Of a DNA stretch of 36,638 nucleotides, positions 185 to 19,829 are shown piece after piece. Made by a program: the position numbers and the translations under genes. Source of the DNA: an uncultured bacterium. GTDB lineage: Bacteria; Patescibacteriota; Microgenomatia; UBA1400; PJMF01. Positions within the stretch are counted from its first letter, which is position 1; each line of letters opens with the position of its first letter. The notes beneath the pieces were generated by a model. The model did no database searches, was not told where the DNA came from, and saw only the letters and a list, made by a program, of their open reading frames with translations. The DNA lies in contig CAITDX010000019.1 of the NCBI GenBank assembly GCA_903891335.1, positions 1 to 36,638 on the forward strand. Direction: 5' to 3'.

Positions 185-1243
185 TTAGTAGGTCGGTAAA
201 AAGATCTTGTAATTATCTGGACCGATTTCAACTTTATCAAAACCGCGCTCAACAATAATCCGCGCTGCTTTACGAGCAGCACCTTGAATGGTGCGCTGTA
301 GCGTACGAATACCAGCGTCGAAACCAAGGGGACGAACCATTTTTTGCCACATTTCTTCCCGGATCACAAACTGATCTGGCTTAAGGCCAACTTCCTTGAG
401 CACCTTTGGCATCACATATTTCTTGGCGATGGCCACTTTTTCTTCATCAGTGTAAGAAGGCATGGTAATTTTTTCCATACGATCCATCACCGCAGTGGCA
501 ATCTTGCGGGTATTGTTACAAGTAGCTAAGAAAATTGCTTGCGAGAGATTGACTGGGTAGTTGATGTAGTCGTCAGTAAAGGCGTGATTCTGGGCCGGGT
601 CAAGCAACTCGACCAACACACCCATAATATCCATGTTGGCATCGTCAGCTCCACGATCAATTTCATCAAGCAAAATAATTGGATTCATCACTCCCGCCTC
701 ACAAACACCCCGCAAAACCTTGCCTGGCTCAGAGCCAAGTAAAAGGCGCGAATTGCCGCGTAATTCTTTGGCACTACCCATGCCACCAAAAGGAATACGG
801 ACTAGCTGACGATTAAGCGCCTCAGCCAGCGAATAGGCAAACGTAGTTTTACCAGTACCCACCAGACCGACCAATAGCAAAATTGGAGCAGAAAATTCTT
901 GATCTCCTAAGTTATTTTTTTGCAAATTCAGCACCGCTAAATACTCAAGAAAACGATCTTTCACTTCCTGCATACCGAAATGATGCTCATCAAAAACTGC
1001 TTTGGCCTTTTGGATGTCCAAAATATCCTCTGACTTTTTACCAAAAGGAATGCGCAAGCACCAGTCTACATACTTAGATACTTTTTCATACTTCTCGTCA
1101 TAGCTCCCAAGCTCTACACTGCGCTCAAGCGCCACGATTTCTTTTTTGAGCTGATAGCGCATTTCATCAGGAAGTTCTGCCTGTTCAACTTTGGCAGCTA
1201 AACCAGCAATTTCTTGGGCGAGAATTTCTTTGTAGTCAGACAT
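185..1243 (-). CDS. Lon-family AAA+ ATPase module without the S16 protease domain
   Basis: 352-aa ORF. Walker A is GLVGTGKTT and Walker B is ILLDEID. HHFGMQEVKDRFLEYLAV matches the conserved Lon segment just before the P-loop. The ORF stops just after the AAA+ lid (GIRTLQRTIQGAARKA...), where Lon proteases continue into the Ser-Lys protease domain. Confidence 0.8.
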   Translation of the reverse strand: MSDYKEILAQEIAGLAAKVEQAELPDEMRYQLKKEIVALERSVELGSYDEKYEKVSKYVDWCLRIPFGKKSEDILDIQKAKAVFDEHHFGMQEVKDRFLEYLAVLNLQKNNLGDQEFSAPILLLVGLVGTGKTTFAYSLAEALNRQLVRIPFGGMGSAKELRGNSRLLLGSEPGKVLRGVCEAGVMNPIILLDEIDRGADDANMDIMGVLVELLDPAQNHAFTDDYINYPVNLSQAIFLATCNNTRKIATAVMDRMEKITMPSYTDEEKVAIAKKYVMPKVLKEVGLKPDQFVIREEMWQKMVRPLGFDAGIRTLQRTIQGAARKAARIIVERGFDKVEIGPDNYKIFLPTY

Positions 1244-1246
1244 AGT

Positions 1247-1783
1247 CTAGTTGCGATAGCGCAAGCTAACTCCAACACCAAACATAATCATAGCTAGAGC
1301 AGCCAACAAATAAGTGTTGTCGAGAGCGCCTGAGACCGGCAGCGTTGCTGAACTCGTGCCACCCTTTGTAGCACTAGTGGTTGTGGTCACCGTTGGAGTA
1401 GGAGTGGCTGCAGCAGAACTGATTGTCAAAGCAAAGTTGAGACTCGTCTCACCAGTGGTACTAATTGTCACCTGATGAGTATCATAGGTCAGATTTGCTA
1501 GATAGGTCGACCAATCACCTGCGGCGTTGGCCGTAGATGAGTATGTCACATCATCAATCTTGACTGAAACAGATTTTGAAGCCTCTGCTTTACCATACAA
1601 ACTAAAGGAACGCAGTGAATAAGTGTATGCGGAAGTTGTCGAGCCGATACCTTTACCTGTCAGATCAGTGGTGCCTATTTTAGTCAACTCGAGCGCTCGA
1701 GCTACACCACTAGAAACAAAAAACATCGACAAAAAAGCTAGAAAAACTACAACTTGTTTACGCATACAGTTTCTACTATCCAT
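1247..1783 (-). CDS. Secreted surface protein with an LPXTG-type (LPVSG) sortase sorting signal
   Basis: N-terminal signal peptide (MRKQVVVFLAFLSMFFVSSGVARA) and a Thr/Ser-rich linker (TPTPTVTTTTSATKGG). The C-terminus has LPVSG, a hydrophobic stretch (LLAALAMIMFGVGVSL) and a basic tail (RYRN). The start could instead be Met7. Confidence 0.65.
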   Translation of the reverse strand: MDSRNCMRKQVVVFLAFLSMFFVSSGVARALELTKIGTTDLTGKGIGSTTSAYTYSLRSFSLYGKAEASKSVSVKIDDVTYSSTANAAGDWSTYLANLTYDTHQVTISTTGETSLNFALTISSAAATPTPTVTTTTSATKGGTSSATLPVSGALDNTYLLAALAMIMFGVGVSLRYRN

Positions 1784-1789
1784 TTAACA

Positions 1790-2725
1790 CTACTTACGAT
1801 GCTTTGTTAACTCCAAAATTTGATGATGACGCAATAGACCAAGCTTAGCCCCAAAGTACGCCACTACATTGCCAGCATTTTTGACTCCCCAAGCAATTGC
1901 CTCTTGATTTGACAAGCCGTATAGGAGAGCAGCCACATACCCCGCAGCAAAAGCATCGCCAGCCCCCGTACTATCAACAGAAACAGTTGATTGGCCAATA
2001 AATTCAAAGGTTTTCTTACCAAAAAGATGGACCTCGCCACCTGCCTTACCTTTGGTAATTACTACCTGAGGAAAGTTAAGTAAAATTTCTTCATGGAGCG
2101 GCTCAATGAGTGCCCATTCTTCTTGATTGACAAAAAAAACTTCACAAGGAATTTGCGCAATTGGCCAATTCTCCTCAAGTAATAAATCGAGTTCCTTGCG
2201 ACCAGGGTTCCAAGAAAGCTTGGTGTCTTGATTGCCACGCAGCACCTTGAAGATTTTATCAAGTGTTTCTTTGCGTCCACCGATGCTTGAAAGGTGAACC
2301 CACCGACTTTTGGCCAGCCAAAATGCCGGAATATCAAAAGGGTCAAGCAGAGAAGCGGCACCACGATGCACCATTGCCACTCGCTCTGAATTTTTAGCAA
2401 CTAAAATAACTGATCCACCAGTTCTTTCAAGTTTTTCTTGAATCAGTAGGTTGGTTGCTACACCTTCTTTTTGGAAATCACTAGTAATCAAATTAGCAAA
2501 CTCATCTCGACCAGTTTCAGAAATCACCGCTGCATGCAGTCCCAAGCGGGCAAAAGCCACCGCCGTATTGCTCGCTCCACCTCCAGTCATCATATGGAAA
2601 TCAGATAATTCCATCTTGTCTCCATAGGTGAGAATTTGCCGATCACCATCGCGATCAGCTTCCAGATCATCAGACTTGATGAAAATATCTAAAAGCGATG
2701 AACCAATTGAAATAGTATCAAACAT
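1790..2725 (-). CDS. PfkB-family carbohydrate/ribo-kinase
   Basis: 311 aa. It has the GG motif (TGGGASNTAVAFARLG) and the C-terminal PfkB signature DSTGAGDAFAAGY. Substrate cannot be read from the sequence. Confidence 0.8.
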   Translation of the reverse strand: MFDTISIGSSLLDIFIKSDDLEADRDGDRQILTYGDKMELSDFHMMTGGGASNTAVAFARLGLHAAVISETGRDEFANLITSDFQKEGVATNLLIQEKLERTGGSVILVAKNSERVAMVHRGAASLLDPFDIPAFWLAKSRWVHLSSIGGRKETLDKIFKVLRGNQDTKLSWNPGRKELDLLLEENWPIAQIPCEVFFVNQEEWALIEPLHEEILLNFPQVVITKGKAGGEVHLFGKKTFEFIGQSTVSVDSTGAGDAFAAGYVAALLYGLSNQEAIAWGVKNAGNVVAYFGAKLGLLRHHQILELTKHRK

Positions 2726-2770
2726 AGGGCAGTGCTAATACTCGTTGATGCAATCAGTGTACTACAATCG

Positions 2771-3391
2771 CTATGATTGACGCAAACGGCGCGCCGCCAT
2801 TTCCTCTTCAAAAATACGCAAGGCCACTTTGAATTCTTCTAAGTTTTCGACAATGCGATACACCTGTGCTTCCTTGTAGCCAATCATGAAATGTTTATGG
2901 GTAACATCAAGAAATTCGCGCCAAAATGCTCCGTATAAAATCAAAGGCTTATGATTGCCATAATATAAGTGCGCCAGCAACCAGGCAGTGGCCCACTCAC
3001 TCAGCGTGCCCGTACCACCCTTGAAACAAACAAACAAATCAGCATTATCCATCAAACCAAACATACGCTCGATATAATTAGCGGTTTTGATTTCTTTATC
3101 GACGATATTGTTGCCATCGCGCCCTTCAAACTCTGGTAAATCCTCTGGATAAAAAGTCACTGCTAGGGTTTTGCCGCCACCGGCTTTGGCACCGCGAGTT
3201 GCTGCCTCCATAATGCCTGGACCACCACCATTAATGACTACTTTACCGCGCTTGGCTACGTGCTTTGCCGCCTCAAATGCCTCTTTATAGGCTGGGTCTT
3301 CTTTATCAAGATCAGCACTGCCATAGAAGGCAATTTTGTCGATTTTACATAATCGATTGGATTTGGGAATCAGAACTTTTTTAGCTGACAT
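2771..3391 (-). CDS. LOG-family (TIGR00730) nucleotide phosphoribohydrolase-like protein
   Basis: 206 aa with the two LOG-family motifs GGGPGIMEA and KGGTGTLSEW (PGGxGTxxE type). Confidence 0.8.
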   Translation of the reverse strand: MSAKKVLIPKSNRLCKIDKIAFYGSADLDKEDPAYKEAFEAAKHVAKRGKVVINGGGPGIMEAATRGAKAGGGKTLAVTFYPEDLPEFEGRDGNNIVDKEIKTANYIERMFGLMDNADLFVCFKGGTGTLSEWATAWLLAHLYYGNHKPLILYGAFWREFLDVTHKHFMIGYKEAQVYRIVENLEEFKVALRIFEEEMAARRLRQS

Positions 3392-4049
3392 GGGACAGAA
3401 ATTCCTCTACTGCTTGCTTGTAATTACTTGCCTTGTTGAAGGCTGAGTTGGCAGTCACACTATCAGCTCCAGCTGCCTGTAGAGCAACGACCGTGTCATG
3501 ATTGACTCCACAATCAATGAAAATCTTCATTGGCTCACCTTTTTGAATTTGCTCACGGGTTGCTTTGATTTTGTCAAAAATCGATGGATGGAGTGACTGA
3601 CCAGAGCGACCAGCTTCTGCCCCAAGCAATAAAATTGCATCCATCCACTCCCAACTATTTTCCTCAATCTCATCAAGTGGCGTGTACAGATCGAGTGCTA
3701 AACCAGCTTTCCAATCTTGTTTTTTCACTTCCTCAAGGAAGGCCTCCTGATACGACATTTTTTCAATTTGACCAAAGACACTGCGAATGGGCAAATGGCG
3801 ACAATACTCTTCCATTTCCCAGACATAGTCCATCGGCTCTTCGGTCATCAAATGAAAATCAATTTGCAGCTCACCAAAATCAATATCAACTAAATCCTGA
3901 GGAGTGAAGGTGTGTTCGTCGGCAAAAACCCCATCGATGATATCAATCTGGACGGCTGGCAGAAGACCGCTTTGTTTTGCTTGCTCTATCTGTCTTTTTG
4001 CTAATTGCAAATCACCGGTTAATACATTTGCTGTGACATCGAGTTTCAT
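3381..4049 (-). CDS. Ribulose-phosphate 3-epimerase family protein (divergent)
   Basis: 222 aa. It aligns by eye to Rpe blocks: VQIDIIDG (Rpe VHFDVMDN), IDFHLMTEEP (IDVHLMV.P), IFIDCGV (LEVDGGV) and GADSVTANSAF (GAD.FVAGSAIF). The first metal-binding His is Gln and the PGFGGQ loop is altered. Overlaps LOG by 11 nt and rpiB by 4 nt. Confidence 0.55.
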   Translation of the reverse strand: MKLDVTANVLTGDLQLAKRQIEQAKQSGLLPAVQIDIIDGVFADEHTFTPQDLVDIDFGELQIDFHLMTEEPMDYVWEMEEYCRHLPIRSVFGQIEKMSYQEAFLEEVKKQDWKAGLALDLYTPLDEIEENSWEWMDAILLLGAEAGRSGQSLHPSIFDKIKATREQIQKGEPMKIFIDCGVNHDTVVALQAAGADSVTANSAFNKASNYKQAVEEFLSHVS

Positions 4050-4522
4050 TGATTCCTTTGTTGTTCATAGTGAGTAATTTGTTGTAGTCGTCGAGCGTGG
4101 CGCTCACTAGAGTCAACTGGCGTACTCATAAAGGTTTCAAAATACGCCGTCATTTGTGCTTCCGTCAAATAATCGCCACTAAACGCAATCACGTTGGCCT
4201 TGTTGTGACTCTTGGCGTGAGCGGCGATGGTTTCATTATAAATTTCAACTGCTCGCACTCCTAATACTTTATTGGCAGCAATTACCACTCCAGAACCAGA
4301 TCGACAAAAAACAATACCCAGCACCTGGGAATCTTGATCTTCGCTCATCGCTACGACTTTATGGGCGACTTGTAAAGCAAACTCAGGATAGTCATCATCT
4401 GGATCAAGTAGATACGCTCCGCAGTCCTCAACTTTGTAGTCGGGATGTTGCTTGACTAGATACGCTTTAAACGATTCTTTGAGAGCAAAACCGCCGTGAT
4501 CGCTGCCGAGATAGATATGCAT
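4046..4522 (-). CDS. rpiB: Ribose-5-phosphate isomerase B (RpiB/LacAB family)
   Basis: 158 aa. IYLGSDHGGFALKE and CRSGSGVVIAANKVLGVRA are typical RpiB motifs. Confidence 0.85.
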   Translation of the reverse strand: MHIYLGSDHGGFALKESFKAYLVKQHPDYKVEDCGAYLLDPDDDYPEFALQVAHKVVAMSEDQDSQVLGIVFCRSGSGVVIAANKVLGVRAVEIYNETIAAHAKSHNKANVIAFSGDYLTEAQMTAYFETFMSTPVDSSERHARRLQQITHYEQQRNQ

Positions 4523-8556: not shown

Positions 8557-9489
8557 CTAGAGTGGCTCAGTCAAATTTTCCTCTGCAATACGATTTAATT
8601 CCAAAACCCGATCGCGCACCGTCGTTTGGATAAAATTCGTCACCGCTTGCCGATCAAATGCTGCATTGGGAGTACGAAACTGTGCCAAATCCTGCCACAA
8701 CACGCTACCCACACAGTATCCACGAGCACCATTCTCCATAGCCAAGCGAAAACTCTCTTTGAAGGCTTCATAGGTATCGGTTGAGTGGCTCGTCACGATA
8801 CAAGGTTGATCTAATTCACTAACGATGGTCGCCATTGCGAGTGGATCAGCCGGATTTGGCACCACCAACACGTCACAAAAGCCTCGTAATTCTTGAATGG
8901 CGGTCAATAACTGTTCCGGATTATCGGAAGCTGGTATGGGTGCCAATTGCGGGTCAGCTGAAGTTGATTTTGATGATTGGTTGGACTGCTCTGCTGTCTT
9001 TACTATCGGAGCTTGACTACTTAACTTGAGCAAAAATTGCTGACCAAGCACTCGGGAGTACTCGCGAATTTCAGCGAGCAACTGCTTTTTCTCAATTGCT
9101 TTCGCCTCACCTGGATAATAATTGAGGTCTAGTTTCGCAGCTGCATAGTTATTGGCAATTTCTTCCAGGCTAAAATTAGGGAAAAGCAGCGGTAAGTTTT
9201 CAGGGAGAATTTCTTTATCCTGATCAAGGGCGATAAGCAGTGCAGCGGGGGTTTTTTGCTGTGCCAACAGCGCCAGTGTGTAGACTGGCTCAAGAACCAC
9301 TCCAGTAGTTTCCTTGCTAAGCTCAAAAAGACTCTGGTTGACTTGCGTAAGGAGCTCCAAATTATCTGGCAACTGTAGATCAAGGCCAAGAATCTCGGCT
9401 AATTCACGATTGTGATTGAGCTCGAGAATGGCAATCAGACCAGATTCATGCTGTAAGGGAGTGGCAGACATGAGAGTAGTATAAAACAA
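8557..9489 (-). CDS. Hypothetical protein with distant DeoC/LacD-type class I aldolase resemblance, probably non-catalytic
   Basis: 310 aa. Block-wise resemblance to my recollection of LacD: GLIAILELNHNR / GIISALAFDQRG, VVLEPVYTL / ILLDPEYGL, CDVLVVPNP / VDVLKVEVP, ELNRIAEE / ELNRVLEE. The Schiff-base Lys position reads Val, and there is a low-complexity insert (SSQAPIVKTAEQSNQSSKSTSADPQLAPIPASDNPEQ). Confidence 0.45.
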   Translation of the reverse strand: MFYTTLMSATPLQHESGLIAILELNHNRELAEILGLDLQLPDNLELLTQVNQSLFELSKETTGVVLEPVYTLALLAQQKTPAALLIALDQDKEILPENLPLLFPNFSLEEIANNYAAAKLDLNYYPGEAKAIEKKQLLAEIREYSRVLGQQFLLKLSSQAPIVKTAEQSNQSSKSTSADPQLAPIPASDNPEQLLTAIQELRGFCDVLVVPNPADPLAMATIVSELDQPCIVTSHSTDTYEAFKESFRLAMENGARGYCVGSVLWQDLAQFRTPNAAFDRQAVTNFIQTTVRDRVLELNRIAEENLTEPL

Positions 9490-9495
9490 TAACTC

Positions 9496-9975
9496 CTAGG
9501 GATCAAAAGCCTTTCTCTTCCACTCTAGTTCCCACGGGTGAATTTTTTTACGAGCAGCAGTTATAATACCGTCTTTAGTATTTTCAAAGGGAATATCTTC
9601 TCTTTGAAAAACAGACGCCAGTCCCTGTAGATTATGATGTCGTAGTAGCTCTTGAATTTCTGCATCAACTCTATCAACTGAGTCATCATATGTTCCAACC
9701 AAATCATTTAAGAGAAGTAAAATTTTATAAACGTCATCTCCTTTGATTCCTGGCGCAGGGAACCAGCCAACGATTTCTAAAACTTCTTTAGCTTTTTTAG
9801 CAATACTAATTAGTGTTTCGTTTTGTGCAATTTCTCTAGTGTATCTACCAAGAAGCAACACGTCTTCTGCTTTTACATTTTTCTCTCTCCCAATCACTTC
9901 GTATTCACTAAAAGCGCGTGCATTTAAATTGATAATTTCTCGTATAAAACCGTTTTGTTCTTGTGCTTCTATCAT
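9496..9975 (-). CDS. Orphan hypothetical protein (159 aa from ATG 9975) in an AT-rich segment
   Basis: The ORF track starts at a GTG at 10071, but those first 32 codons contain the pnp terminator hairpin. The first ATG (MIEAQEQ...) is at 9975. No recognisable domain. Confidence 0.5.
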   Translation of the reverse strand: MIEAQEQNGFIREIINLNARAFSEYEVIGREKNVKAEDVLLLGRYTREIAQNETLISIAKKAKEVLEIVGWFPAPGIKGDDVYKILLLLNDLVGTYDDSVDRVDAEIQELLRHHNLQGLASVFQREDIPFENTKDGIITAARKKIHPWELEWKRKAFDP

Positions 9976-10010
9976 TGTGAGTAGACTAGCACTTTTTGAG
10001 ACACTATGCA

Positions 10011-10045
10011 AAAACCCGCCCCTTCGTTCGAAAGTAGCGGGTTTT
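10011..10045 (-). terminator. Rho-independent terminator downstream of pnp
   Basis: Arms aaaacccgc (10011-10019) and gcgggtttt (10037-10045). On the minus strand the hairpin ends in GCGGGTTTTT, about 40 nt after the pnp stop. Confidence 0.7.
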
Positions 10046-10083
10046 ATAGTTTTAGTTAAAAAACTAATCACAAAAAAAGAGGC

Positions 10084-12432
10084 TTATCTTCTCCCGCCTC
10101 TGTCGCCGCCGCCAAATCTGCGACCGCCACCGAAACCACCACGGTCTCCGCCTCGACGATCACCGCCTCGGTCACCGCCGAAACGACGTCCGCCACGGTC
10201 GCCACCAAAACCGCCTCGACCACCAAATCCACCACGACCATTGTCTTCGCGATCACCTCTGGCAGCAGCTTTTTCTTTGGCTTCTGCTTCTTGTTCTTTG
10301 GTGAGTAGGGTTAAGGCAATTTTGCCCTCTGGGTTGTATTCTTTGACACGGACGTGAATCTGATCGCCAACCTGATAGAGCTCGCTGGCATCCTTAACAT
10401 ACTCAGTTGACATGTTGGAAACGTGGACGAGACCCTCGCGACCAGGCAAGAATTCGACAAACACTCCGTAGCCTTCGACACGAGTGACGATACCATCAAA
10501 CTCATCATCAACCTCAACTTCGCGAACGATATTGTCGATCATCTTCATCGCTTTATCAATTGCTTCCTGATTTGGAGATGACACATTGATGATGCCGAGT
10601 TTGTTTTCTTTATCTTCCTCGACATTGACCTCTGCACCGGATTTCTCAATGATATCCTTGATGACTGAGCCACCAGAGCCAATAACGGCACCGATTTTCT
10701 CAGCTGGAATGGTGATTTGAGACACTTTTGGAGCATACTGACTCAAAGCAGTACGAGGTTCACTAATGCATTTCATCATCTCGCCCATAATGTGCAAGCG
10801 ACCCTCAAGAGCTTGACCCAGTGCCTTGACTAAGACTTCTTTGGGAATACCCTTGAGTTTGATATCCATCTGAATCGCAGTGATGCCATCCTTGGTGCCG
10901 GCAACTTTGAAGTCCATGTCACCGACGTGATCTTCCAGACCTTGAATGTCGGAGAGGATGACAAATTTCTCACCATCGGACATCAAGCCCATGGCAATAC
11001 CTGCCACTGGTTTCTTGATTGGTACGCCAGCTGCCATCAAGGCCATGGTCGAACCACAGACTGAAGCCTGAGAAGTTGAACCATTGGAACTCATGATGTT
11101 GCTCACCACGTGAATGGTGTAAGGGAAAGCCTCTTGGCTAGGAATCATAGGTAGGAGAGCGCGCTCTGCTAAGGCTCCATGACCAATTTCACGACGCTTG
11201 GGATAGCCAATCCGACCAGCTTCACCAGAGGCATAAGGTGGCATATCATAGTGGTGGATGTAGTGGCGAGTTTGCTCACCAGACATATCCTCAATCAATT
11301 GACCTAGGGAAGGATCGCCGAGGGTGACAACGGTGAGGGCTTGGGTCGCGCCACGCTTAAACATGGCACTCCCGTGTACTCTAGGCAATAGATCGACTTC
11401 ACACCAGATGGGGCGGATTTCGGTGGTGGCGCGACCATCAGGGCGAACTTCGTCCTCGATGATCATGCGGCGAGCTTCGGCCTTCATCAGGTCGTGGAAA
11501 ATGCCCTTGAGCATGCCTTCGCTGAGCTCACTCACTTCACCTTCAGCAAGCTTAGCAGCATCATCGTCAAGAATTTGCTTGATGAGTTCGTCTAAACCGG
11601 TTGGTTCGAGACGACCTTCTTTATTGACCATATCGTTGACTTCCTGAGCGTAAGTTTTGGCTAAGTTGTCGACAAGCGCCTGCTTTTTCGCAGCAACTTC
11701 TGGATCAACTGCATCCACCAACTCAAGTTTGGCTTTGCCAATGGCAGCCACGACAGTCTCAATTTGAGCACAGACTTTAGTTGCCTCTTCTTGTGCACGA
11801 AGCAACGCTTCAATCATGACTGACTCAGCGACTTCGTTGGCACCAGCCTCGACCATCACGATGGAATTCTTGGAAGCAGACACAATTAAATCGAGATCAT
11901 TGCCTTCAATTTGACTGCGTTTGGGATTGATCAGGAATTGACCATCCACACTCAAACCAAGACGCATGCCAGCCACTGGACCGTCAAAAGGAATGTCAGA
12001 AATTTGCAAAGCCACGGCGGTGCTCAGTAAGGCAATCATGTCTGGCTCGTTCTCACCATCATAAGAGAGCACAGTATTGATGACCTGCACTTCATTAGTG
12101 ATGCCATCAGGAAACAATGGACGCATGGTACGATCGATCACCCGTGCACGCAGCACAGAGTCATCAGTAGGACGACCATCACGCTTGACCCAACGAGAAC
12201 CCTTGATGATGCCACCGGCAAAAAGTTTCTCAATGAATTCTACTGATAAAGGGAAGTAACCAAGATTGACCTTGCGACCAAGAGCCACAGTGGTGTGGAC
12301 AATGGTTTCGCCACAAGTGGCTAGCACCGCGGCACTCACCTGCTCACTAAATTTACCGACTTCGAGGTGAATTTCTTTGTCACCCACGACAATAGTTTGC
12401 GTATATGTATTTCCATATTTTGGATACGACAT
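10084..12432 (-). CDS. pnp: Polyribonucleotide nucleotidyltransferase (PNPase) with a C-terminal RGG-repeat tail
   Basis: 782 aa with two RNase PH-like cores plus KH and S1 regions (..GAVIGSGGSVIKDI.., ..FDGIVTRVEGYGVFVEF..), followed by a 58-aa Arg/Gly/Asp/Phe tail. Confidence 0.95.
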   Translation of the reverse strand: MSYPKYGNTYTQTIVVGDKEIHLEVGKFSEQVSAAVLATCGETIVHTTVALGRKVNLGYFPLSVEFIEKLFAGGIIKGSRWVKRDGRPTDDSVLRARVIDRTMRPLFPDGITNEVQVINTVLSYDGENEPDMIALLSTAVALQISDIPFDGPVAGMRLGLSVDGQFLINPKRSQIEGNDLDLIVSASKNSIVMVEAGANEVAESVMIEALLRAQEEATKVCAQIETVVAAIGKAKLELVDAVDPEVAAKKQALVDNLAKTYAQEVNDMVNKEGRLEPTGLDELIKQILDDDAAKLAEGEVSELSEGMLKGIFHDLMKAEARRMIIEDEVRPDGRATTEIRPIWCEVDLLPRVHGSAMFKRGATQALTVVTLGDPSLGQLIEDMSGEQTRHYIHHYDMPPYASGEAGRIGYPKRREIGHGALAERALLPMIPSQEAFPYTIHVVSNIMSSNGSTSQASVCGSTMALMAAGVPIKKPVAGIAMGLMSDGEKFVILSDIQGLEDHVGDMDFKVAGTKDGITAIQMDIKLKGIPKEVLVKALGQALEGRLHIMGEMMKCISEPRTALSQYAPKVSQITIPAEKIGAVIGSGGSVIKDIIEKSGAEVNVEEDKENKLGIINVSSPNQEAIDKAMKMIDNIVREVEVDDEFDGIVTRVEGYGVFVEFLPGREGLVHVSNMSTEYVKDASELYQVGDQIHVRVKEYNPEGKIALTLLTKEQEAEAKEKAAARGDREDNGRGGFGGRGGFGGDRGGRRFGGDRGGDRRGGDRGGFGGGRRFGGGDRGGRR
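10087..10260 (-). repeat. Low-complexity coding repeat (RGGFGG / DRGGRRFGG units)
   Basis: Translates to RGDREDNGRGGFGGRGGFGGDRGGRRFGGDRGGDRRGGDRGGFGGGRRFGGGDRGGRR. The GC-rich ccgcc/ccacc periodicity is visible in the DNA. Confidence 0.9.
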
Positions 12433-12613
12433 ATCGTTCTTTCTTGCCTCTAATGTTTATGGTAGGAGAGGCCTGCCTACTGAACTTCTGAAAGTGGAGA
12501 TGAGTATTCTGAAAAGAAGAGAAGTTCTTAACCTGATTAAGTCAAGTAAAGTTCTCGTCTTTTTGGAATCCTCAAAAATCTCCATTCTCGAAGTCAAAAA
12601 TACTAATAGGGGG

Positions 12614-12645
12614 ATTATACCATGGATCTGTAACCATCAGAAACA
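12614..12645 (-). promoter_or_regulatory. Putative pnp promoter (extended -10 TGGTATAAT)
   Basis: The minus strand reads ..catGGTATAATccc.. (-10 at 12614-12619, TG at 12621-12622), immediately downstream of the rpsO terminator. The -35 is weak (TTCTGA at 17 nt). Confidence 0.55.
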
Positions 12646-12647
12646 AA

Positions 12648-12670
12648 AACCCCGCCGAAGTGGCGGGGTT
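12648..12670 (-). terminator. Rho-independent terminator after rpsO
   Basis: 9-bp GC-rich stem aaccccgcc / ggcggggtt with loop gaagt. On the minus strand it is followed by TTTTGTTTCT, about 50 nt after the rpsO stop. Confidence 0.8.
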
Positions 12671-12722
12671 ATGATTTACTTGTATGAAGTATTTTTCCGC
12701 TCAGCGATGCGCTGAAGCAAAA

Positions 12723-12992
12723 TTATTTACTCAAACCTAATTTTTCGATCAACTTGCGATAGCGGTCTTCACTGCGAGAAAGCAAGAAATTGAGTAAGCG
12801 ACGACGTTTGGACACTTGTTTGAGCAAACCCTTGCGGGAATGGTTGTCTTTTTTGTGCAATTTCAAGTGCTCAGTCAACTGTTCAATTGAAGCAGTTAAA
12901 AGCGCCACCTGCACCTCTGGTGAACCAGTGTCACCCTCAAAAAGGGCAAAATCCTTGATAATTGAAGCTTTGTTTTGTTTTGCTAATGCCAT
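12723..12992 (-). CDS. rpsO: 30S ribosomal protein S15
   Basis: 89 aa. ..[46 protein letters not shown].. is typical S15. Confidence 0.95.
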
Positions 12993-13065
12993 AGTTCCTT
13001 TCGCCTTTATCCGCCCAGTGCTTCAAACCGGAGGGAAAAGTAAGCATCAATTGATATAGATTGAT

Positions 13066-13074
13066 AGTATAGCA
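13066..13074 (-). promoter_or_regulatory. Putative rpsO promoter (extended -10 TGCTATACT)
   Basis: The minus strand reads ttttttgTGCTATACTatc about 75 nt upstream of the rpsO ATG, with a T-rich upstream tract and no good -35. Confidence 0.45.
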
Positions 13075-13113
13075 CAAAAAAGGTAAAAATACGAGATAAA
13101 GCCAAGAATTTAA

Positions 13114-13515
13114 CTATGCTTCGTCGTCAACTAAACCAGCAAATTTATCGAGAAGCCAATGACCTGATTTTGTTGCAGTGGTAGACTGCGTTGAAGGTTT
13201 ATTTTGCGTATTTGCTAACACAAATTCCAAGGCACCGCGCTCTGCATCATTCAATAAGTCATTAGTAAATTCTTTTAATTGAGTGAGATTGTTAATCATC
13301 TCAATGTCTCTACTCTCTAAAATTTGTTTTTCTAAATTTACAGAGGCTTCTTCTAAATACTTGGCTATTTCATCTGCATCCGCTGAAGAGATAGAAGAAT
13401 ATTTATCTTCAGTCAGTAAACCAGACAAATAGTCAATTCTTTCACTCGGAGCAGTAGACTGACCAATCGCATCCCTAAGTAAAGAAAAAAATGAACCTGA
13501 ATCTTGGTTATTCAT
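13114..13515 (-). CDS. Small acidic hypothetical protein (133 aa, no Cys), partner of the 876-aa protein
   Basis: AGGAA SD 7 nt upstream, 21 nt after the stop of the upstream gene. It looks helical and Asp/Glu-rich with a Ser/Thr/Gln-rich linker (NKPSTQSTTATKS). No signal peptide or TM segment. Confidence 0.6.
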   Translation of the reverse strand: MNNQDSGSFFSLLRDAIGQSTAPSERIDYLSGLLTEDKYSSISSADADEIAKYLEEASVNLEKQILESRDIEMINNLTQLKEFTNDLLNDAERGALEFVLANTQNKPSTQSTTATKSGHWLLDKFAGLVDDEA

Positions 13516-13536
13516 AACGTATTCCTATTAAGTCTT

Positions 13537-16167
13537 TTATACTACGTTCACATCCTCAATCGTCTCAGCCTTATTAAAGGTATTAAATGATCTGTTACCA
13601 GGCATCAAATTCCAAGTAGGTCGAGCTAGAATCAAGAAAGGAACTATTTTAACTACCTTGTCCAAAGCATCTTTTACGTTTGGTGCATTATTTTCAAGGA
13701 ATTGAGTAGCCAGCCACCAAATTCCCTTGAGACCTACCTCAGCATTTTGGAAAGCAATATCAGCGTTAGCTCCTGATTCAGCACTTGGCAATCCACTTTC
13801 TGCGGCGATTTTGGCAATTTCAGCAGCACCCTGCTGCATCTTAGATAAGTCTGAGAGAGCTCCTCTCATTGAAGTCTCCGCAGCTTGCGCCCACTCTCCT
13901 GCCACTGCATCAACCCCATTAGCAATACCTAGTGCCATAAATACCGCGGCAGCACCGGCTCCAAGAGCAGCAATTTGTTCCCACATTTTATCTAATTTTG
14001 AACGCTCAAAAATTTGTCTAAGTTCCATCTTAGCAAAGCCACGCTGAGCATCTTGCAGAAGAAGCGCGGTAGCCTCTTGTATCGCAAGATTACTGCGCTC
14101 GACACCGCTCTCCATGGTCTTTAGCTGTTTTTTAAAGTGTTCAACAGCAAGAGTTGATTCTTTTCTTCTTTGATCTGTATTCTCAGCAACCTCATCTACA
14201 GATTGACGTTTGCTCCCCTCAGTGAGCATTCTCCACACTCGGCTATTTTGAGCAAGTTTTGTGTCAGGACCAAGAATCTTACGCATTAACTCAGCTGTTC
14301 TACTAAATACCGACCTATTAAGATGTCTCTCCATCGCATCTCTGCTCATGTATTGCTGAGGAATATTAGAGCTATCAATCTGATTATCCATCCATTGTTC
14401 TTCTAGAGTAAAAGAATTCTCAGCTAATGCGGACACCTCTTCTCCGCCCATCTTTTTCAAACCCTCATTAACTTCAGCCAAAACGCCTTTACCGTCAAGC
14501 ATTTTTTGTGCTCTCGTTTTCAGTTCCTTCAAAAGTTTGCCGGCATTCTCACGGAACATAATACCTCCAGTAACCGAATCAATTCCTGCAGAAGCCAATT
14601 CGAGTGGAGATAATACAGCTGAGAGAGCCAAACCCTTGCCTTCAGTAATCGAGATTGTGTCATTGGCTCGGGCAACCATCATCGCTGCTCGCATGAAAGC
14701 AGATTCGGCACCGCGCAAAATAGTCGCTGCCTTAACAACTTCTTTCTCGCCGTATTCTTCTGGGTTAGCGAGGATGTTATTGAGATTTTCGACTGCCATC
14801 TCTTTGGCAACAACTGCTGAACTCAAATCATTAACTGCGCTTTCAGCAATTGTCCCCTCCATGTTATTAACGGCGAAACCAACTTCCGTGCCCAAATCCT
14901 CGGCAAAAGTAAGAAAACCTTTTCCAATTCTCTTTGCCATAGGCACAGCCGCTTCTTTAAACCATTCAGGAAGAATAATATCCACATCGACTGCAGTCGC
15001 AGTCAAAACTTTTTGCCAATTTTGAGCATTGTCAAAATCAAATCCTAAATATTTCTTTTGTGCATTTTGATACTGCTCTAAAGATAGATCTTGCTGTCTC
15101 TGGAAATATTTTTGGAAATGCTCGGCTTGAACTCGACGATCTGCTTTCACAAAAACACCTTTTGTCATGAACTGTGGTAACTCACTACCTTCTTCAAGTG
15201 CCTTGCTTTCATCCGCTGTCAAAGGAGCACTCTTGCTATCTGCTGCGACTTCGGTCATTAGCTGCTTACGCAAATCTCCAAGTTCTGCGGTGCTTAAAAC
15301 ACCAGCTCGCCACATTTCCAAAACTGAGGCGGTGTCACCAGAACCAACAATCTTTGCTCTAAGCTCAACTGAAATATCAGACATTTTTGCTTCACGAGCG
15401 GCATCAGGAGCAACAAACTCATGAAGTCTTCTTCCAACGGCACCATGAAACAAAGCATCATCAGCCAAGGCTAAGACCTTACGCACTGGACCACCGGCCA
15501 TAGATGACCAAAACTTAAACTTATATTTATCTGGATCTGTTGAAGAAACGCCTAAGTCAGCTGTCGATCTAAATTTGTTAGCCTTATCTAAATCAGCTTG
15601 AGCTCTATGTAGCTCTTTTAAACTTGACCAGGTCTCACGCTTTGCTTTGTTTGCTTCTGTTATAAAAGCCTTAATAGCTTCCTTATCTTTGTCCTTGCTA
15701 TTCAGATAGGCTTCCCACAAAGCATTTATCTCTGTTTCCATCTCCTCTGAGTTTTTAAACTGTTTACGCACTTCCATTAACTGGTTGACCATTTCTCGCA
15801 AACTCTCAACGCCAGAAGCCATAAACTCCACTTGTTTCTCCTGTCCTTGTCCAGTTAATTCGCGATCAGCTATTGTTTGAAATACTTCAGCAGCTCCTTT
15901 TTCCTTTAAAAATTTAGCTAAGGTTTTTAATTCTCTGCTATCTTGGCTTAATCCAAGTTCAACTGCTAAAAACCTAGTGAGGTTTTCGGCATCAGCAAGA
16001 ACACTCACTTCACCATCTTCAAGTCCCTTTTGTTGACTTTTCAAATCTGCCCAAACCAAAGGCTGCTTCGTTTCTACCCACGAAAGCATGAAGACTGTCA
16101 GCAACTGCTGGTAATGCTCGATTAATCGACGGTTGAAGATCTTTGGCTTGTGGTTGTGGAGCTGCAT
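13537..16167 (-). CDS. Large orphan alpha-helical protein (876 aa, no Cys) with C-terminal hydrophobic/glycine-zipper segments
   Basis: Long uninterrupted ORF with no recognisable catalytic motif or signal peptide. It contains many charged, coiled-coil-like stretches. Hydrophobic segments are IAALGAGAAAVFMALGIANGVDAVAG and VVKIVPFLILARPTW. The start codon is uncertain because the SD is weak. Confidence 0.7.
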   Translation of the reverse strand: MQLHNHKPKIFNRRLIEHYQQLLTVFMLSWVETKQPLVWADLKSQQKGLEDGEVSVLADAENLTRFLAVELGLSQDSRELKTLAKFLKEKGAAEVFQTIADRELTGQGQEKQVEFMASGVESLREMVNQLMEVRKQFKNSEEMETEINALWEAYLNSKDKDKEAIKAFITEANKAKRETWSSLKELHRAQADLDKANKFRSTADLGVSSTDPDKYKFKFWSSMAGGPVRKVLALADDALFHGAVGRRLHEFVAPDAAREAKMSDISVELRAKIVGSGDTASVLEMWRAGVLSTAELGDLRKQLMTEVAADSKSAPLTADESKALEEGSELPQFMTKGVFVKADRRVQAEHFQKYFQRQQDLSLEQYQNAQKKYLGFDFDNAQNWQKVLTATAVDVDIILPEWFKEAAVPMAKRIGKGFLTFAEDLGTEVGFAVNNMEGTIAESAVNDLSSAVVAKEMAVENLNNILANPEEYGEKEVVKAATILRGAESAFMRAAMMVARANDTISITEGKGLALSAVLSPLELASAGIDSVTGGIMFRENAGKLLKELKTRAQKMLDGKGVLAEVNEGLKKMGGEEVSALAENSFTLEEQWMDNQIDSSNIPQQYMSRDAMERHLNRSVFSRTAELMRKILGPDTKLAQNSRVWRMLTEGSKRQSVDEVAENTDQRRKESTLAVEHFKKQLKTMESGVERSNLAIQEATALLLQDAQRGFAKMELRQIFERSKLDKMWEQIAALGAGAAAVFMALGIANGVDAVAGEWAQAAETSMRGALSDLSKMQQGAAEIAKIAAESGLPSAESGANADIAFQNAEVGLKGIWWLATQFLENNAPNVKDALDKVVKIVPFLILARPTWNLMPGNRSFNTFNKAETIEDVNVV

Positions 16168-16212
16168 TTGTTTCTGTCATAGGAACTTTCACATGAAAAA
16201 CTACTTGTTTCC

Positions 16213-16241
16213 ATTAAAAAACAATTTTCATGTCAAGTCAA
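16213..16241 (-). promoter_or_regulatory. Sigma70-type promoter for the 876-aa gene
   Basis: Minus strand: TTGACT (16236-16241), a 17-nt spacer, then TTTAAT (16213-16218). This predicts a 5' UTR of about 40 nt. Confidence 0.6.
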
Positions 16242-16380
16242 ACAAGCAAAATAAAAATGATTACTTTTGAATCATTTTGTTATATTTTTGAAACAGAATC
16301 GCACTCTGCTTAATGTAAAAAACCGAGAAAGTTACTAATTGCTCACTACAATGAATCTTTCATTCACGAAAGACAACTCT

Positions 16381-17865
16381 CTATCCCTCTTTTCGATACG
16401 CCACGATCACGTCGCCCACTTGAAAATCCAATTTCTTGTTTTTGAAAGTCAAACCACCTTCATTTTTGGTACCAATGCGCTCAATGTCTTCCTTGCCATG
16501 CTTCATCGACTTGAGGACAGGATTGGCGATAATTTCTTCACCACGCTTGAGGTGTAGTAAATCACTTTTCTTGATTTCACCAGTGCGCACACGCACACCT
16601 GCAATCACCTCACCCTTCATCTCAAACATTTGCAAAATCTCTGCCTCACCAGTCACCACCTCATCAAAAGTTGCATCCATCAACTTAAGCATGCTCTTCT
16701 GTAAATCTTCAATCAAATGATAAATAATATTGTATTCTTTAATCTTGACTCCTAAATTCTTAGCGGTTTTTTTGACTGTGCCATTAACCTTGATGTTAAA
16801 AGCGATCAGCAGCACCTTGCCATCGCGAGCCAACTCCAAGTCTTGCTCAGTAATCTGCCCCACACCACAAGCAATCACATCAACACTATCGCGATCAAGA
16901 CTTTGTAAAATCGCTTCAAGCGTACCTTTGACATCAGCCTTAATGATCAACTTAATCTTCTCTCGTTCACCCAACATCACGTCAAGATCGACATTCTCCC
17001 AGTTGATCTCATCACCCATGCGAAATGATTTCTCGAGTTCACCAGTCTTGGCGAATTCATCAGTCAAATCAGCATCATAGCTTCTCGAGCTATCGCGAAT
17101 CACACTCCCTACTTCTGGCACCTCTTCCAGACCAATAATTTCAGCTGGCTCACCAGGCAAAACCTGTTGCAACGACTGACCGCGCTCATTCTCTAGCAGG
17201 CGCACGCGCCCAGTAATCTCATCGACCACCAAATCTTGACGCACCGCCAAAGTGCCTGAACGGACAATCACCCGAGCCACCGAACCCTTGTTTTTTTCTT
17301 TACTTGACTCGATAACCACTGCCTCAAGCGGCGCTGCCGGATCAGCCTTCAGTTCCAAAAGATCAGCCATCACCACAATCGTCTCGAGGAGTTTATCCAC
17401 TCCCTGACCAGTGCGAGCTGACAATTCGATCGCCTCGATATCACCACCATATTCTTGAACCAACACCCCTGCTTCTGCCAACTGCGATTTCACCACTTCT
17501 AAGTGTAAATCGGGCAAATCAATTTTATTGATCGCCACGATAAAGGGCACTTGGCTTTCTTTGATGAAACGAATCGACTCGATAGTTTGAGGCTTGACGC
17601 CATCATTGGCAGCCACCACCAGCACCACTAAATCAGTAATCTGAGTACCACGCTGACGCATCTTGTTGAAAGCGGCGTGACCAGGAGTATCGATAAAGGT
17701 AATTTTCTGAGCAGCAAACTCGACCTGGTAGGCACCGATATGCTGGGTGATGCCGCCAGCTTCACGAGCAGCGACATTGCTATGACGAATGTAATCCAAG
17801 AGCGAGGTCTTGCCGTGATCGACATGACCCATAATCGTAATGATTGGCGCTCTTTTCTCTAACAT
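16381..17865 (-). CDS. infB: Translation initiation factor IF-2, minimal form
   Basis: 494 aa. The P-loop GHVDHGKT begins at residue 13, and DTPGH and NKID are present, followed by domains II to C2. AAGGA SD upstream. Only 40 nt separate it from the nusA stop, so no N-terminal region can be encoded. Confidence 0.9.
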   Translation of the reverse strand: MLEKRAPIITIMGHVDHGKTSLLDYIRHSNVAAREAGGITQHIGAYQVEFAAQKITFIDTPGHAAFNKMRQRGTQITDLVVLVVAANDGVKPQTIESIRFIKESQVPFIVAINKIDLPDLHLEVVKSQLAEAGVLVQEYGGDIEAIELSARTGQGVDKLLETIVVMADLLELKADPAAPLEAVVIESSKEKNKGSVARVIVRSGTLAVRQDLVVDEITGRVRLLENERGQSLQQVLPGEPAEIIGLEEVPEVGSVIRDSSRSYDADLTDEFAKTGELEKSFRMGDEINWENVDLDVMLGEREKIKLIIKADVKGTLEAILQSLDRDSVDVIACGVGQITEQDLELARDGKVLLIAFNIKVNGTVKKTAKNLGVKIKEYNIIYHLIEDLQKSMLKLMDATFDEVVTGEAEILQMFEMKGEVIAGVRVRTGEIKKSDLLHLKRGEEIIANPVLKSMKHGKEDIERIGTKNEGGLTFKNKKLDFQVGDVIVAYRKEG

Positions 17866-17905: not shown

Positions 17906-19159
17906 TTACACTTGATCGCGACTTTGCTCTTCTTTCAAATAGGCATCAACGCGAGCAAGCAAGATTTCCTGATCAGCTGGAGTGATTTCATTCATCTTAA
18001 CCCATTTATCGCGGAAACGCACTAAATCGTTGAGCGTAGTCAATTTGTGCTGCACCAACACCTCACGGGTATCAGCAGCCAAACCAAAAGTGTCGATTTC
18101 GTATTCTTCTTTACCGGTTACGGCTGATTGGATCTGACCAGTGGCTGATTTAACCGTGATTTGATAGCCAGTTAATTTAGCAGCCAAACGGACGTTTTGA
18201 CCACCACGACCAATGACGAGCGACAGTTGGTCATCAGGAGCAGTCACCGTCACTTGGCGATTTTTCTGATCAACTTCGATCTGCAAGCCTTCAGCAGGAG
18301 CCAACGCACCTTGCAAGAGCAAGCGATCGTCTGCTGAGAAAGGAATGATGTCAACTTTTTCGTTGTTAAGTTCTTCAATCACTTTTTGGACACGCACGCC
18401 GCGCTGACCCACACAAGAACCAACTGGATCGACACCATCTTGAGTGGATTTAACGGTCAATTTAGTGCGCACGCCAGCTTCACGAGCAATGGCGACAATT
18501 TGCACTGCACCTGAAGCAACTTCTGGCACTTCTCGCTCAAATAATTTACTGACTAAGTCAGCACTGGAACGGGAAACAATAATCTGCTCACCGCGGACAG
18601 TTTCACTAATTTCTTTGATCAAAACGGCCAAGCGCTGATTGAGGCGATAAAATTCACCACGCATCTGCTCCTCGGGAGGCATAATCGCCTGACCACGACC
18701 GATATCCATAATCACACTGCGACCCTGCATGCGCAGGACTTGACCAGTGACAACTTCACCCATGCGATCACGATAGGCAGCAATGATGGTGTCACGCTCA
18801 CTACGACGAATGCGCTGGAGAATTACCTGCTTGGCGGTTTGGGCGGCAATCCGACCAAAACCAGCTGGAGTAACATCTTCAGCTTTTTTCTCATCCCACT
18901 CTAGAATCTCAAGGGTTTCCTCATCTTTTTTGATGGCTGGAGCACGCAAAATGCGAGCACTACCATTATTTTTGTCAAGATCAACGTAGTAATGGAAATT
19001 CTCATCAAGATCACCCATTTGCTTGCGATACGCTGATACTAAAGCCTGACGAATAGCTTCATAAATATCTTCTGGATCAATTTTGCGCTCGGTCGCAATC
19101 TGAGTGATCGCGGCAGCAAATTCAGTGCGGACGAGGTTGGCATTTTGAAGAGTAGCCAT
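17906..19159 (-). CDS. nusA: Transcription termination/antitermination factor NusA
   Basis: 417 aa with an N-terminal domain, S1 (GEVVTGQVLRMQGRSVIMDIG) and two KH regions (GVDPVGSCVGQRGVRVQ.., LVIGRGGQNVRLAAKLTG), plus a short C-terminal extension. Confidence 0.9.
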   Translation of the reverse strand: MATLQNANLVRTEFAAAITQIATERKIDPEDIYEAIRQALVSAYRKQMGDLDENFHYYVDLDKNNGSARILRAPAIKKDEETLEILEWDEKKAEDVTPAGFGRIAAQTAKQVILQRIRRSERDTIIAAYRDRMGEVVTGQVLRMQGRSVIMDIGRGQAIMPPEEQMRGEFYRLNQRLAVLIKEISETVRGEQIIVSRSSADLVSKLFEREVPEVASGAVQIVAIAREAGVRTKLTVKSTQDGVDPVGSCVGQRGVRVQKVIEELNNEKVDIIPFSADDRLLLQGALAPAEGLQIEVDQKNRQVTVTAPDDQLSLVIGRGGQNVRLAAKLTGYQITVKSATGQIQSAVTGKEEYEIDTFGLAADTREVLVQHKLTTLNDLVRFRDKWVKMNEITPADQEILLARVDAYLKEEQSRDQV

Positions 19160-19323: not shown

Positions 19324-19581
19324 CTAATAGACTTGACCATGAGTCCCAATTGCTAAAAGATAGATATTTTCATCAACAAAACGAACCAAGATACGAATAC
19401 TCATGTTCACGGAGATTGAATAATCCTGGCGATTTGATAATTTATGTAAACGCAGTGAGGGATGATCTGGAGCAACAAGCAGTAGTTTTAATGTTTTGGT
19501 AATTTGTTTCTTTAAGCGGGGGTTCTTGGCAGCTATTTTCACCATGCTTTTATGAAAGGTTGAAGAAATAACCAAATTCAT
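19324..19581 (-). CDS. RelE/ParE-superfamily type II toxin
   Basis: 85 aa. HPSLRLHKLSNRQDYSISVNMSIRILVRFVDENIYLLAIGTHGQVY has the typical C-terminal pattern of this superfamily. The start overlaps the antitoxin stop (TAATG). Confidence 0.75.
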   Translation of the reverse strand: MNLVISSTFHKSMVKIAAKNPRLKKQITKTLKLLLVAPDHPSLRLHKLSNRQDYSISVNMSIRILVRFVDENIYLLAIGTHGQVY

Positions 19582-19829
19582 TAAGATAAGCCTTCAAAAA
19601 CTTGATCCACGTATTGGGCTACTGCCTGAGCATCTTTTAAGGTTTTTGCTTGACCGCTGCGATGTTCACTAATTGCTTGGTTTGCCAAAGAATTTAACTG
19701 GATTTCAGTTAAAGTTTGGCGTAAAGCAGTGCGCACCAGATCACTAAAGGATGCAAAATAGCCAGCCTGGATTAATTGATCAGCTTGTAACTTCAACTGA
19801 CTCGGCAATGATACATTTATTGTATGCAT
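19581..19829 (-). CDS. ParD-like ribbon-helix-helix antitoxin
   Basis: 82 aa. The N-terminus INVSLPSQLKLQADQLIQAGYFASFSDLVRTALRQ matches the ParD/CopG RHH pattern (VSLP...G.Y.S.SE.VR.ALR). Confidence 0.75.
   Translation of the reverse strand: MHTINVSLPSQLKLQADQLIQAGYFASFSDLVRTALRQTLTEIQLNSLANQAISEHRSGQAKTLKDAQAVAQYVDQVFEGLS

Follow-up and report, generated by a model that had tools for sequence, protein, structure and literature searches.

The interval between infB and rpsO is usually occupied by rbfA and truB, and the locus described here carries another pair of genes at the same genomic position. It lies on a 36,638-nucleotide (nt) contig (CAITDX010000019.1, GenBank assembly GCA_903891335.1; this whole stretch is the window referred to below) from an uncultured bacterium of the Patescibacteria, or candidate phyla radiation (CPR), and encodes a protein of about 880 amino acids (aa), here called the big protein, followed by an acidic protein of 133 aa, the small protein. 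Type III translocators resemble this pair in layout only: they and their class II chaperones (IpaB/IpgC, YopB/SycD) likewise combine a large, mostly helical protein carrying two moderately hydrophobic helices with a small, acidic, helical, co-encoded partner of ~130-170 aa; however, the helices of the big protein are C-terminal whereas those of the translocators are central, and the small protein is a predicted five-helix bundle with a tethered peptide instead of a TPR chaperone. Phage tail tape-measure proteins, with their gpG/gpGT-type chaperones, are likewise long all-alpha proteins with Ala/Gly-rich hydrophobic segments, but the chaperone gene is upstream in those systems and the chaperone-like gene of our pair is downstream. 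C-terminally anchored bacterial membrane scaffolds, a topological class, resemble the big protein in lacking a signal peptide, in placing hydrophobic helices within the final ~150 residues behind a large cytoplasmic N-terminal domain and in a positive-inside charge pattern, all of which the big protein displays as judged by hydropathy and charge only. The likeness is one of topology, no member of the class being related to it by sequence or fold, and the big protein has two hydrophobic helices ~80 residues apart where the class has a single terminal anchor. As argued below, the pair is a native, vertically inherited unit of a narrow CPR lineage, for which a membrane-anchored scaffold with an adaptor is our tentative reading. 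On the minus strand the genes follow the order nusA, infB, big gene, small gene, rpsO, pnp:

17906-19159, minus strand: nusA
16381-17865, minus strand: infB, short form, 494 aa
13537-16180, minus strand: big gene, ~880 aa after repair of a 1-nt frameshift
13537-16167, minus strand: open reading frame (ORF) of 876 aa, the frame of the big gene as called in the earlier note
16019-16022, minus strand: frameshift site, one extra T at 16021/16022 creating a TGA in the true N-terminal frame; homologues are intact here
13516-13536, minus strand: gap of 21 nt between the big and small genes, with an AGGA Shine-Dalgarno sequence before the second start
13114-13515, minus strand: small partner gene, 133 aa, isoelectric point (pI) 4.3
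12723-12992, minus strand: rpsO
10084-12432, minus strand: pnp

An earlier note on this DNA had correctly placed the 133-aa ORF between infB and rpsO, with nusA upstream and pnp downstream, and had recognised the 21-nt gap and the Shine-Dalgarno sequence of the second gene, here AGGA; the two genes share one frame, with three stop codons between them. Its 876-aa ORF does exist but has the wrong N-terminus, the real gene being ~880 aa long and starting at 16180. All homologues of the big protein begin with MSE..(P)Q..KPSI.KA.P...NE.AFALGRF.KSEKG..GEVSV, and the window encodes an N-terminus of this type in another frame, from the ATG at 16180 to a TGA at 16021-16019, while the 876-aa frame resumes homology at LEDGEVSV; because of this, the first ~49 residues of the 876-aa ORF are evidently spurious. 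A DNA alignment with the closest relative reveals one surplus base in the window at the frameshift site, and deleting one T at 16021/16022 restores an ORF of ~880 aa, close relatives having 875-881 aa. Since this single-base insertion splits the big gene, the public annotation is truncated too: the NCBI call is an 850-aa product from an internal Met. The N-terminal 53 codons still look constrained, with a ratio of nonsynonymous to synonymous substitution rates (dN/dS) of 0.23 against the nearest relative, and the extra T is either an assembly error or a recent frameshift lesion. Programmed +1 frameshifting at ACT-TGA was rejected, given the poor re-pairing and the uninterrupted ORF in all homologues.

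Both proteins have relatives, so the word orphan used for them in the earlier note does not apply. A word-indexed search of 5.8 billion proteins returned six clusters for the big protein (55-100% identity), and the same six proteins only were found when it was repeated with a 17-sequence alignment. With a HMMER profile search of 1.84 billion representative proteins we obtained just 12 big-protein clusters, which marks the family as narrow; they measure 789-926 aa, a single entry of 374 aa aside, and for most of them the alignment covers the greater part of the sequence. A corresponding set of relatives exists for the small protein. A pattern scan of one-genome-per-species GTDB contigs detected the pair in two species, one of them 'Candidatus Pacebacteria bacterium UBA6180' (Minisyncoccota, that is, Patescibacteria/CPR). 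With homologues in several metagenomic lineages, the genes are not singletons, and by their distribution they form a rare, lineage-restricted family of a narrow group of Patescibacteria/CPR (Minisyncoccota).

The earlier note was right that neither protein belongs to a recognisable family. The window proteins matched nothing in Pfam, NCBIfam, PHROGs or PADLOC, and all 17 family members searched against Pfam, PHROGs and NCBIfam gave scattered single-member noise only. Neither protein matched the RBFA or TruB_N/PseudoU-synthase profiles (Pfam/NCBIfam, E <= 1, noise aside). Sequence-profile searches of the PDB yielded nothing below E ~0.002 and nothing consistent, matches to an STI1 domain and to a paramyxovirus phosphoprotein (E ~0.04-0.1) being taken as chance. 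Foldseek comparisons of the predicted models with the PDB gave no significant match for the big (best E = 0.8) or the small protein (best E = 0.6), and none was significant for the big model against BFVD (best E = 0.03-0.5, TM-score <= 0.13). By the tests applied, which are less sensitive than HHpred, the pair is outside all described families and folds, and its proposal as an undescribed unit agrees with the outcome of the profile, PDB-sequence and PDB/BFVD fold searches. The idea that the small protein is a detached domain of the big one was rejected, since hhalign detected no relation between the two families.

The pairing is strict. A co-oriented small gene directly follows the big one in every lineage whose downstream DNA could be read, 12 of 12 (the window, L005, the P0003/P0009 contig, L001, L004, L099, L008, L010, L012, L013, L015 and L097), and the partners are homologous to one another. 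The partner is called as 122-157 aa, starting 7-22 nt after the big gene, in all of these lineages except L004, whose call of 98 aa starting 114 nt downstream looks N-terminally truncated. A hidden Markov model of the small protein built from the close clade matches the distant partners at E = 2e-42 to 6e-7 (nominal database size 1e6); the most divergent partner reaches 16 bits only, yet has the size, charge and end motifs in common. Further, the pairwise identities of big and small proteins run in parallel (r = 0.95; 36 genome pairs from nine genomes). Given this co-divergence and the strict co-occurrence, the pair can be taken as a unit of inheritance and relocation, and the two proteins almost certainly work together, as the earlier note had proposed.

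The position of the pair was compared across relatives. All close relatives (55-78% identity) have the order nusA-infB-BIG-small-rpsO-(variable)-pnp, and L099 (37% identity, short contig) has infB-BIG-small-rpsO, so that the infB-rpsO site holds the pair in L099 and in each of the six close-clade loci. In distant members (19-30% identity) it is found at other sites:

L008: pair after an AAA+ gene and before UDG, RNase J and FtsK
L010/L011: pair after yceG and directly before rpoB
L012: pair among glycosyltransferases
L013: pair after trxB
L015 and L098: pair between rplA and rplJ-rplL
L097: pair before a HEPN/nucleotidyltransferase (NTase) pair

Across these sites the module is seen to move through genomes only as a pair. 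A block of rpiB-rpe-LOG(LDcluster4)-PfkB-x-AAA+(Lon-lid) is common to the window (185-4522) and L008 (5396-9871); the two genes come directly after this block in L008, whereas in the window the AAA+ gene is the last one before the contig end and the pair is 12 kb off, between infB and rpsO. This argues that the two genes moved together while their neighbourhood otherwise stayed conserved. Unrelated loci from an infB-seeded metagenome scan, dominated by generic IF2 genes 39-45% identical, provided interval sizes and a negative control: none of 80 bacterial infB loci contained the pair. In the 19 that also included rpsO, the infB-rpsO interval measured 1.3-2.0 kb in 13, the size expected for rbfA plus truB as judged by size alone. 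These sizes agree with the earlier statement that rbfA-truB usually sit there; the window interval is 3.4 kb, is occupied by the pair and encodes nothing similar to RbfA or TruB.

The ratios of nonsynonymous to synonymous change against the nearest relative, which are rough because synonymous sites are near saturation, were as follows:

Big gene: dN/dS 0.08, aa identity 78%
Small gene: dN/dS 0.10, aa identity 77%
infB: dN/dS 0.02, aa identity 92%
nusA: dN/dS 0.035, aa identity 93%
pnp: dN/dS 0.056, aa identity 87%
rpsO: dN/dS 0.009, aa identity 99%

Such values indicate that both genes are functional and under purifying selection. The earlier note had also reported a lower GC content than in the flanking genes, and this stands for one gene at most: the big gene (0.429) is close to the whole window (0.442) and within the range of the other genes (0.368-0.509), while the small gene is low (0.361; 0.27 at third codon positions), as is one other native-looking local ORF. 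The impression of low GC comes mostly from the AT-rich intergenic spacers (0.286). Near-native composition together with dN/dS of ~0.1 shows vertical inheritance, and the comparisons firmly show that the pair is native to a narrow CPR lineage and is not a mobile or foreign cassette. The view of the pair as an inserted block displacing rbfA-truB does not survive its composition, the purifying selection and the occupation of this site in all close relatives as well as in a relative at 37% identity. Of the findings that the earlier note had named as counting against its proposal, a shared locus in relatives and a native composition were observed; a lack of partner-specific co-occurrence was not. 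Of the features of a genomic island (deviant composition, mobility genes or target-site features, patchy presence in close relatives) only the low GC of the small gene was found.

A mobile toxin-immunity or other conflict or defence module would also place a large gene before a small acidic one at a tight gap, would tolerate a small gene of deviant GC, and could turn up at different positions in different lineages, one of which (L097) does adjoin a HEPN/NTase pair. However, PADLOC gave no match, and no toxin, LXG, RHS or similar domain was detected. Homology is collinear over the full length of the big protein, with no swapped or variable C-terminal toxin domain, and the partner is conserved and not swapped, so that an immunity-type partner, as once suggested, is unlikely. 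The borders of the pair in the window hold no integrase, transposase, repeats or tRNA; no phage genes were seen in any examined context; and tblastn against phage (50,697 records) and plasmid collections found nothing, which, with the PHROGs and PADLOC results, leaves no link to phages, plasmids or defence systems. With synteny, vertical inheritance and low dN/dS added, it is firmly shown that the pair belongs to no catalogued type of toxin-immunity or defence module, and a conflict module of any kind would surprise us greatly.

The pair and rpsO have expression signals of their own:

16213-16241, minus strand: pair promoter, TTGACT (16241-16236), 17-nt spacer, TTTAAT (16218-16213); -35, spacing and -10 kept in five lineages
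13066-13074, minus strand: extended -10 of rpsO, TGcTATACT; TATAMT core common to the window, L005, L004 and L006
12993-13065, minus strand: 5' leader of rpsO, with a conserved, covarying hairpin and a sub-threshold match to the Rfam S15 leader
12648-12670, minus strand: intrinsic-terminator-like site after rpsO, 9-bp stem with 7 G-C pairs and a T-run; the sole one on this strand within 12300-17000

The independent TTGACT-17-TTTAAT promoter described in the earlier note is present and gains support from conservation. Five lineages, whose big proteins are 37-78% identical to that of the window, retain TTTGACT, 17-18-nt spacing and T(T/G)TAAT or TTAAAT, while the remaining intergenic DNA has diverged. 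A generic promoter scanner did not call this promoter, and in that scan the region had no more promoter-like sites than shuffled sequence. Likewise, the separate rpsO promoter is borne out by the core shared with three relatives, the TG extension being confined to the window and its nearest relative. The leader that follows is also conserved upstream of rpsO in L004, L005, L006 and L099, and its hairpin has six covarying or compensatory pairs. It scores 22.1 bits against the S15 leader RF00114 (gathering score 39.5; match at 12936-13039), and a scan of the whole window at the gathering threshold gave no Rfam match; the leader may represent a CPR version of the autoregulatory S15 element. The AT-rich inverted repeats that the earlier note saw upstream (16254-16278 and others) are real in the window but have no counterpart in relatives, and a role for them as an operator was therefore rejected.

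The position of the pair could have a functional cause. In L098 (1675-6668), L015 (1082-11074) and L011 (422-7187) the pair is inside the secE-nusG-rplK-rplA...rplJ-rplL-rpoB region, after rplA, before rplJ or directly before rpoB, and a second set of core expression operons thus hosts the same module in distant relatives. A gene-expression-linked factor that tethers ribosomes, RNA polymerase or the degradosome to the membrane, or that replaces ribosome-maturation factors, would explain this recurrence: three or four of about seven independent positions are in or beside such operons (infB-[pair]-rpsO-pnp in the window clade and L099; rplK-rplA-[pair] and [pair]-x-rplJ-rplL in L098 and L015; [pair]-rpoB in L011), RNase J is two genes downstream in L008, and our terminator scan of 12300-17000 on the minus strand found none between infB and the pair and none between the pair and rpsO. 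Yet the remaining sites are unrelated (trxB, glycosyltransferases, a HEPN/NTase toxin-antitoxin pair), and three of seven is weakly above chance in small genomes rich in expression genes (inferred binomial p ~0.03-0.15 for a background of 10-20%). Neither protein showed an RNA-binding or ribosome-factor domain, and since the pair is served by a promoter of its own, and rpsO by a separate promoter and leader, co-regulation is not forced. We regard such a role as very improbable.

The proteins themselves offer further clues. The big protein (pI 5.4) is rich in Ala, Leu, Glu and Lys, has no Cys, and shows neither a signal peptide nor an N-terminal hydrophobic segment. Its 17 members align collinearly from end to end, with the most conserved motifs in the C-terminal half; the only invariant clusters are G-S-x-R and R-x-x-L-D, and LRGAE and TGG are nearly invariant. 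An AlphaFold2 model made from this alignment is all-helical apart from one small beta-hairpin, with a ~100-residue helix spanning the most conserved motif and the hydrophobic stretch. The small protein (pI 4.26) is predicted to form a bundle of five helices (residues 5-101), from which a disordered linker rich in Ser and Thr (103-117) leads to a short terminal helix. The elements that matter most are:

13990-14004, minus strand: R-x-x-L-D motif of the big protein (RSKLD, then KMW), invariant, immediately before hydrophobic helix 1
13918-13974, minus strand: hydrophobic helix 1, Ala/Gly-rich, IAALGAGAAAVFMALGIAN, Kyte-Doolittle 1.85; in all members, ~10 residues after RxxLD
13600-13656, minus strand: hydrophobic helix 2, VVKIVPFLILARPTWNLMP region, Ala/Gly-rich; weaker, 1.0-1.85 across the family
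13132-13158, minus strand: WLLDKFAGL, conserved amphipathic C-terminal peptide of the small protein, a short helix followed by an acidic tail

Helix 1 has Kyte-Doolittle values of 1.1-2.1 across the 17 members, and helix 2 follows it after ~50-90 (mostly ~80) residues, the positions being conserved in 17/17. Net charge is positive before helix 1 and negative in the loop in all 17 members, and positive after helix 2 in 13 of them. By hydropathy and charge count, these flanking charges fit a topology with the N-terminus in, the loop out and the C-terminus in. The membrane association raised in the earlier note is thus plausible, given two conserved hydrophobic helices. For the small protein, the best fold matches are the talin rod, vinculin tail and FAT bundles (TM-score ~0.43-0.48), adaptors that bind amphipathic helices; the small protein also bears a short amphipathic Leu-rich peptide of its own. 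These matches have E >= 0.6, are to eukaryotic proteins without sequence relation, and are of a kind that helical bundles give generically.

Our preferred reading, which we hold tentatively, is that the pair forms a helical scaffold in the cytoplasm, anchored in the membrane, together with an acidic and soluble adaptor or chaperone. The two genes are co-transcribed from their conserved sigma-70-type promoter within the nusA-infB...rpsO-pnp cluster. The big protein would act in the cytoplasm as a large all-alpha scaffold, fixed to the cell membrane through its C-terminal Ala/Gly-rich helix pair, with the N-terminus inside, an acidic loop of ~80 residues outside, a short basic C-terminal tail inside and the invariant RxxLD at the membrane interface. 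Because of the tight gap and its own Shine-Dalgarno sequence, the small protein would be made in step with the big one, and would act as its soluble partner, either an adaptor or a holding chaperone, whose bundle carries WLLDKFAGL on a flexible linker for docking onto the big protein or the membrane. A cell-intrinsic envelope or organisational role, and not warfare, seems most likely because of the purifying selection and the location in housekeeping operons.

Several observations weigh against this reading. The AlphaFold2 model is of middling confidence (predicted local distance difference test score 67.6; predicted template modelling score 0.51), with values below 50 for the former in the hydrophobic region, and the topology is derived from simple hydropathy and a charge count instead of a trained predictor. 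Moderate hydrophobicity and a high share of Ala and Gly, as seen in the helices, would also fit soluble proteins that later insert in another cell's membrane. Compared with the housekeeping genes around it, the pair evolves 2-4 times faster, which also fits a role in interaction or conflict. Finally, every fold and profile search was negative, so that none points to a function.

Patescibacteria are largely inferred to be episymbionts, and some of these points would suit an exported translocator or effector with a small acidic chaperone, whose Ala/Gly-rich helices insert in the membrane of the host cell, much as type III translocators do with the help of their chaperones, or phage tape-measure proteins with their membrane-inserting end. 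Small-residue-rich, moderately hydrophobic helices at conserved positions agree with this (two such helices, at 1.0-2.1 in all members, are indeed present, although the feature is not specific to translocators), as do a small (~130 aa), acidic, helical and always co-encoded partner, the faster divergence (78% identity in a genome pair where infB and nusA have 92-93%) and the episymbiotic lifestyle. So, too, do the best, non-significant, BFVD matches, dominated by phage tape-measure and minor tail proteins. The best of these, however, has E = 0.03 at a TM-score of 0.08, and we read them as probably a generic resemblance among long helical proteins. No member of the family has a signal peptide or recognised secretion domain, none of the 17 matches a tape-measure family in PHROGs or Pfam, and the type III comparison brought no similarity in sequence (Pfam, 17 members) or in fold (Foldseek against the PDB, both proteins). 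In about ten contexts, the surrounding +/-6-10 kb held housekeeping genes and no genes of a secretion system or phage tail. The small protein is unlike TPR-type or other known secretion chaperones, and dN/dS of ~0.1 carries no sign of an arms race. We therefore consider a translocator unlikely, and the host-interaction role floated in the earlier note stays speculative since neither secretion signal nor machinery was seen.

A further reading is a previously unrecognised, lineage-specific membrane machine of ultra-small CPR bacteria, which would be either a tether or organiser for the transcription-translation-RNA-decay apparatus or a host-membrane-inserting translocator with a chaperone and no known secretion system. 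The tether version draws on the recurrence of the pair in the nusA-infB/rpsO-pnp, rplKA/rplJL and rpoB clusters. This reading as a whole is, in our judgement, distinctly unlikely.

The surrounding genes show further features. IF2 (16381-17865, minus strand) is a short form without the long N-terminal region of E. coli IF2, and its length of 494 aa is identical in all close relatives. The C-terminus of polynucleotide phosphorylase (PNPase; 10084-10260, minus strand) is a tail of ~55 residues rich in Arg, Gly and Asp that contains GDREDNGRGGFGGRGGFGGDRGGRRFGGDRGGDRRGG, an RGG-like extension unusual among bacterial PNPases. The rpsO-pnp spacer (12433-12722) varies between close relatives: in the window it is 290 nt of intergenic DNA with a strong terminator, in L005 (7266-8309) it holds a Fic-domain gene, and in L001-L003 (L001 13611-13850) a 79-aa ORF. 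Between nusA and dnaJ (19324-19829, minus strand) there are overlapping small ORFs of 82 and 85 aa, the stop of the former overlapping the start of the latter at 19581 in a layout like that of a toxin-antitoxin pair; the 85-aa product has no Pfam match at E <= 1e-3. At this spot L004 carries instead an RHH_8-type gene of 96 aa, and L001 a CDP-OH transferase-like gene plus a 181-aa gene. Downstream of pnp (8557-10071, minus strand) are ORFs of 310 and 191 aa (GC 0.368) with no Pfam match. Since relatives have an unannotated gene of 273-325 aa at the position of the 310-aa ORF, that ORF probably also belongs to a lineage-specific conserved family.

Patescibacteria make up a large share of bacterial diversity, with tiny genomes and a poorly understood cell biology and episymbiotic lifestyle. 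Their lineage-specific clusters of unknown function number 54,343 (PMC9132574), so that a further unassigned family is unsurprising in itself. This pair stands out from that background by its size and strict co-occurrence, by the purifying selection on it, and by its conserved promoter and operon contexts. A protein of nearly 900 residues takes up ~0.3% of a genome of ~1 Mb, and this share, together with the selection acting on it, its constant partner and its location in core operons, makes it likely that the protein is important for the cells that carry it. Working out its function would yield a new protein family and, probably, a new complex.

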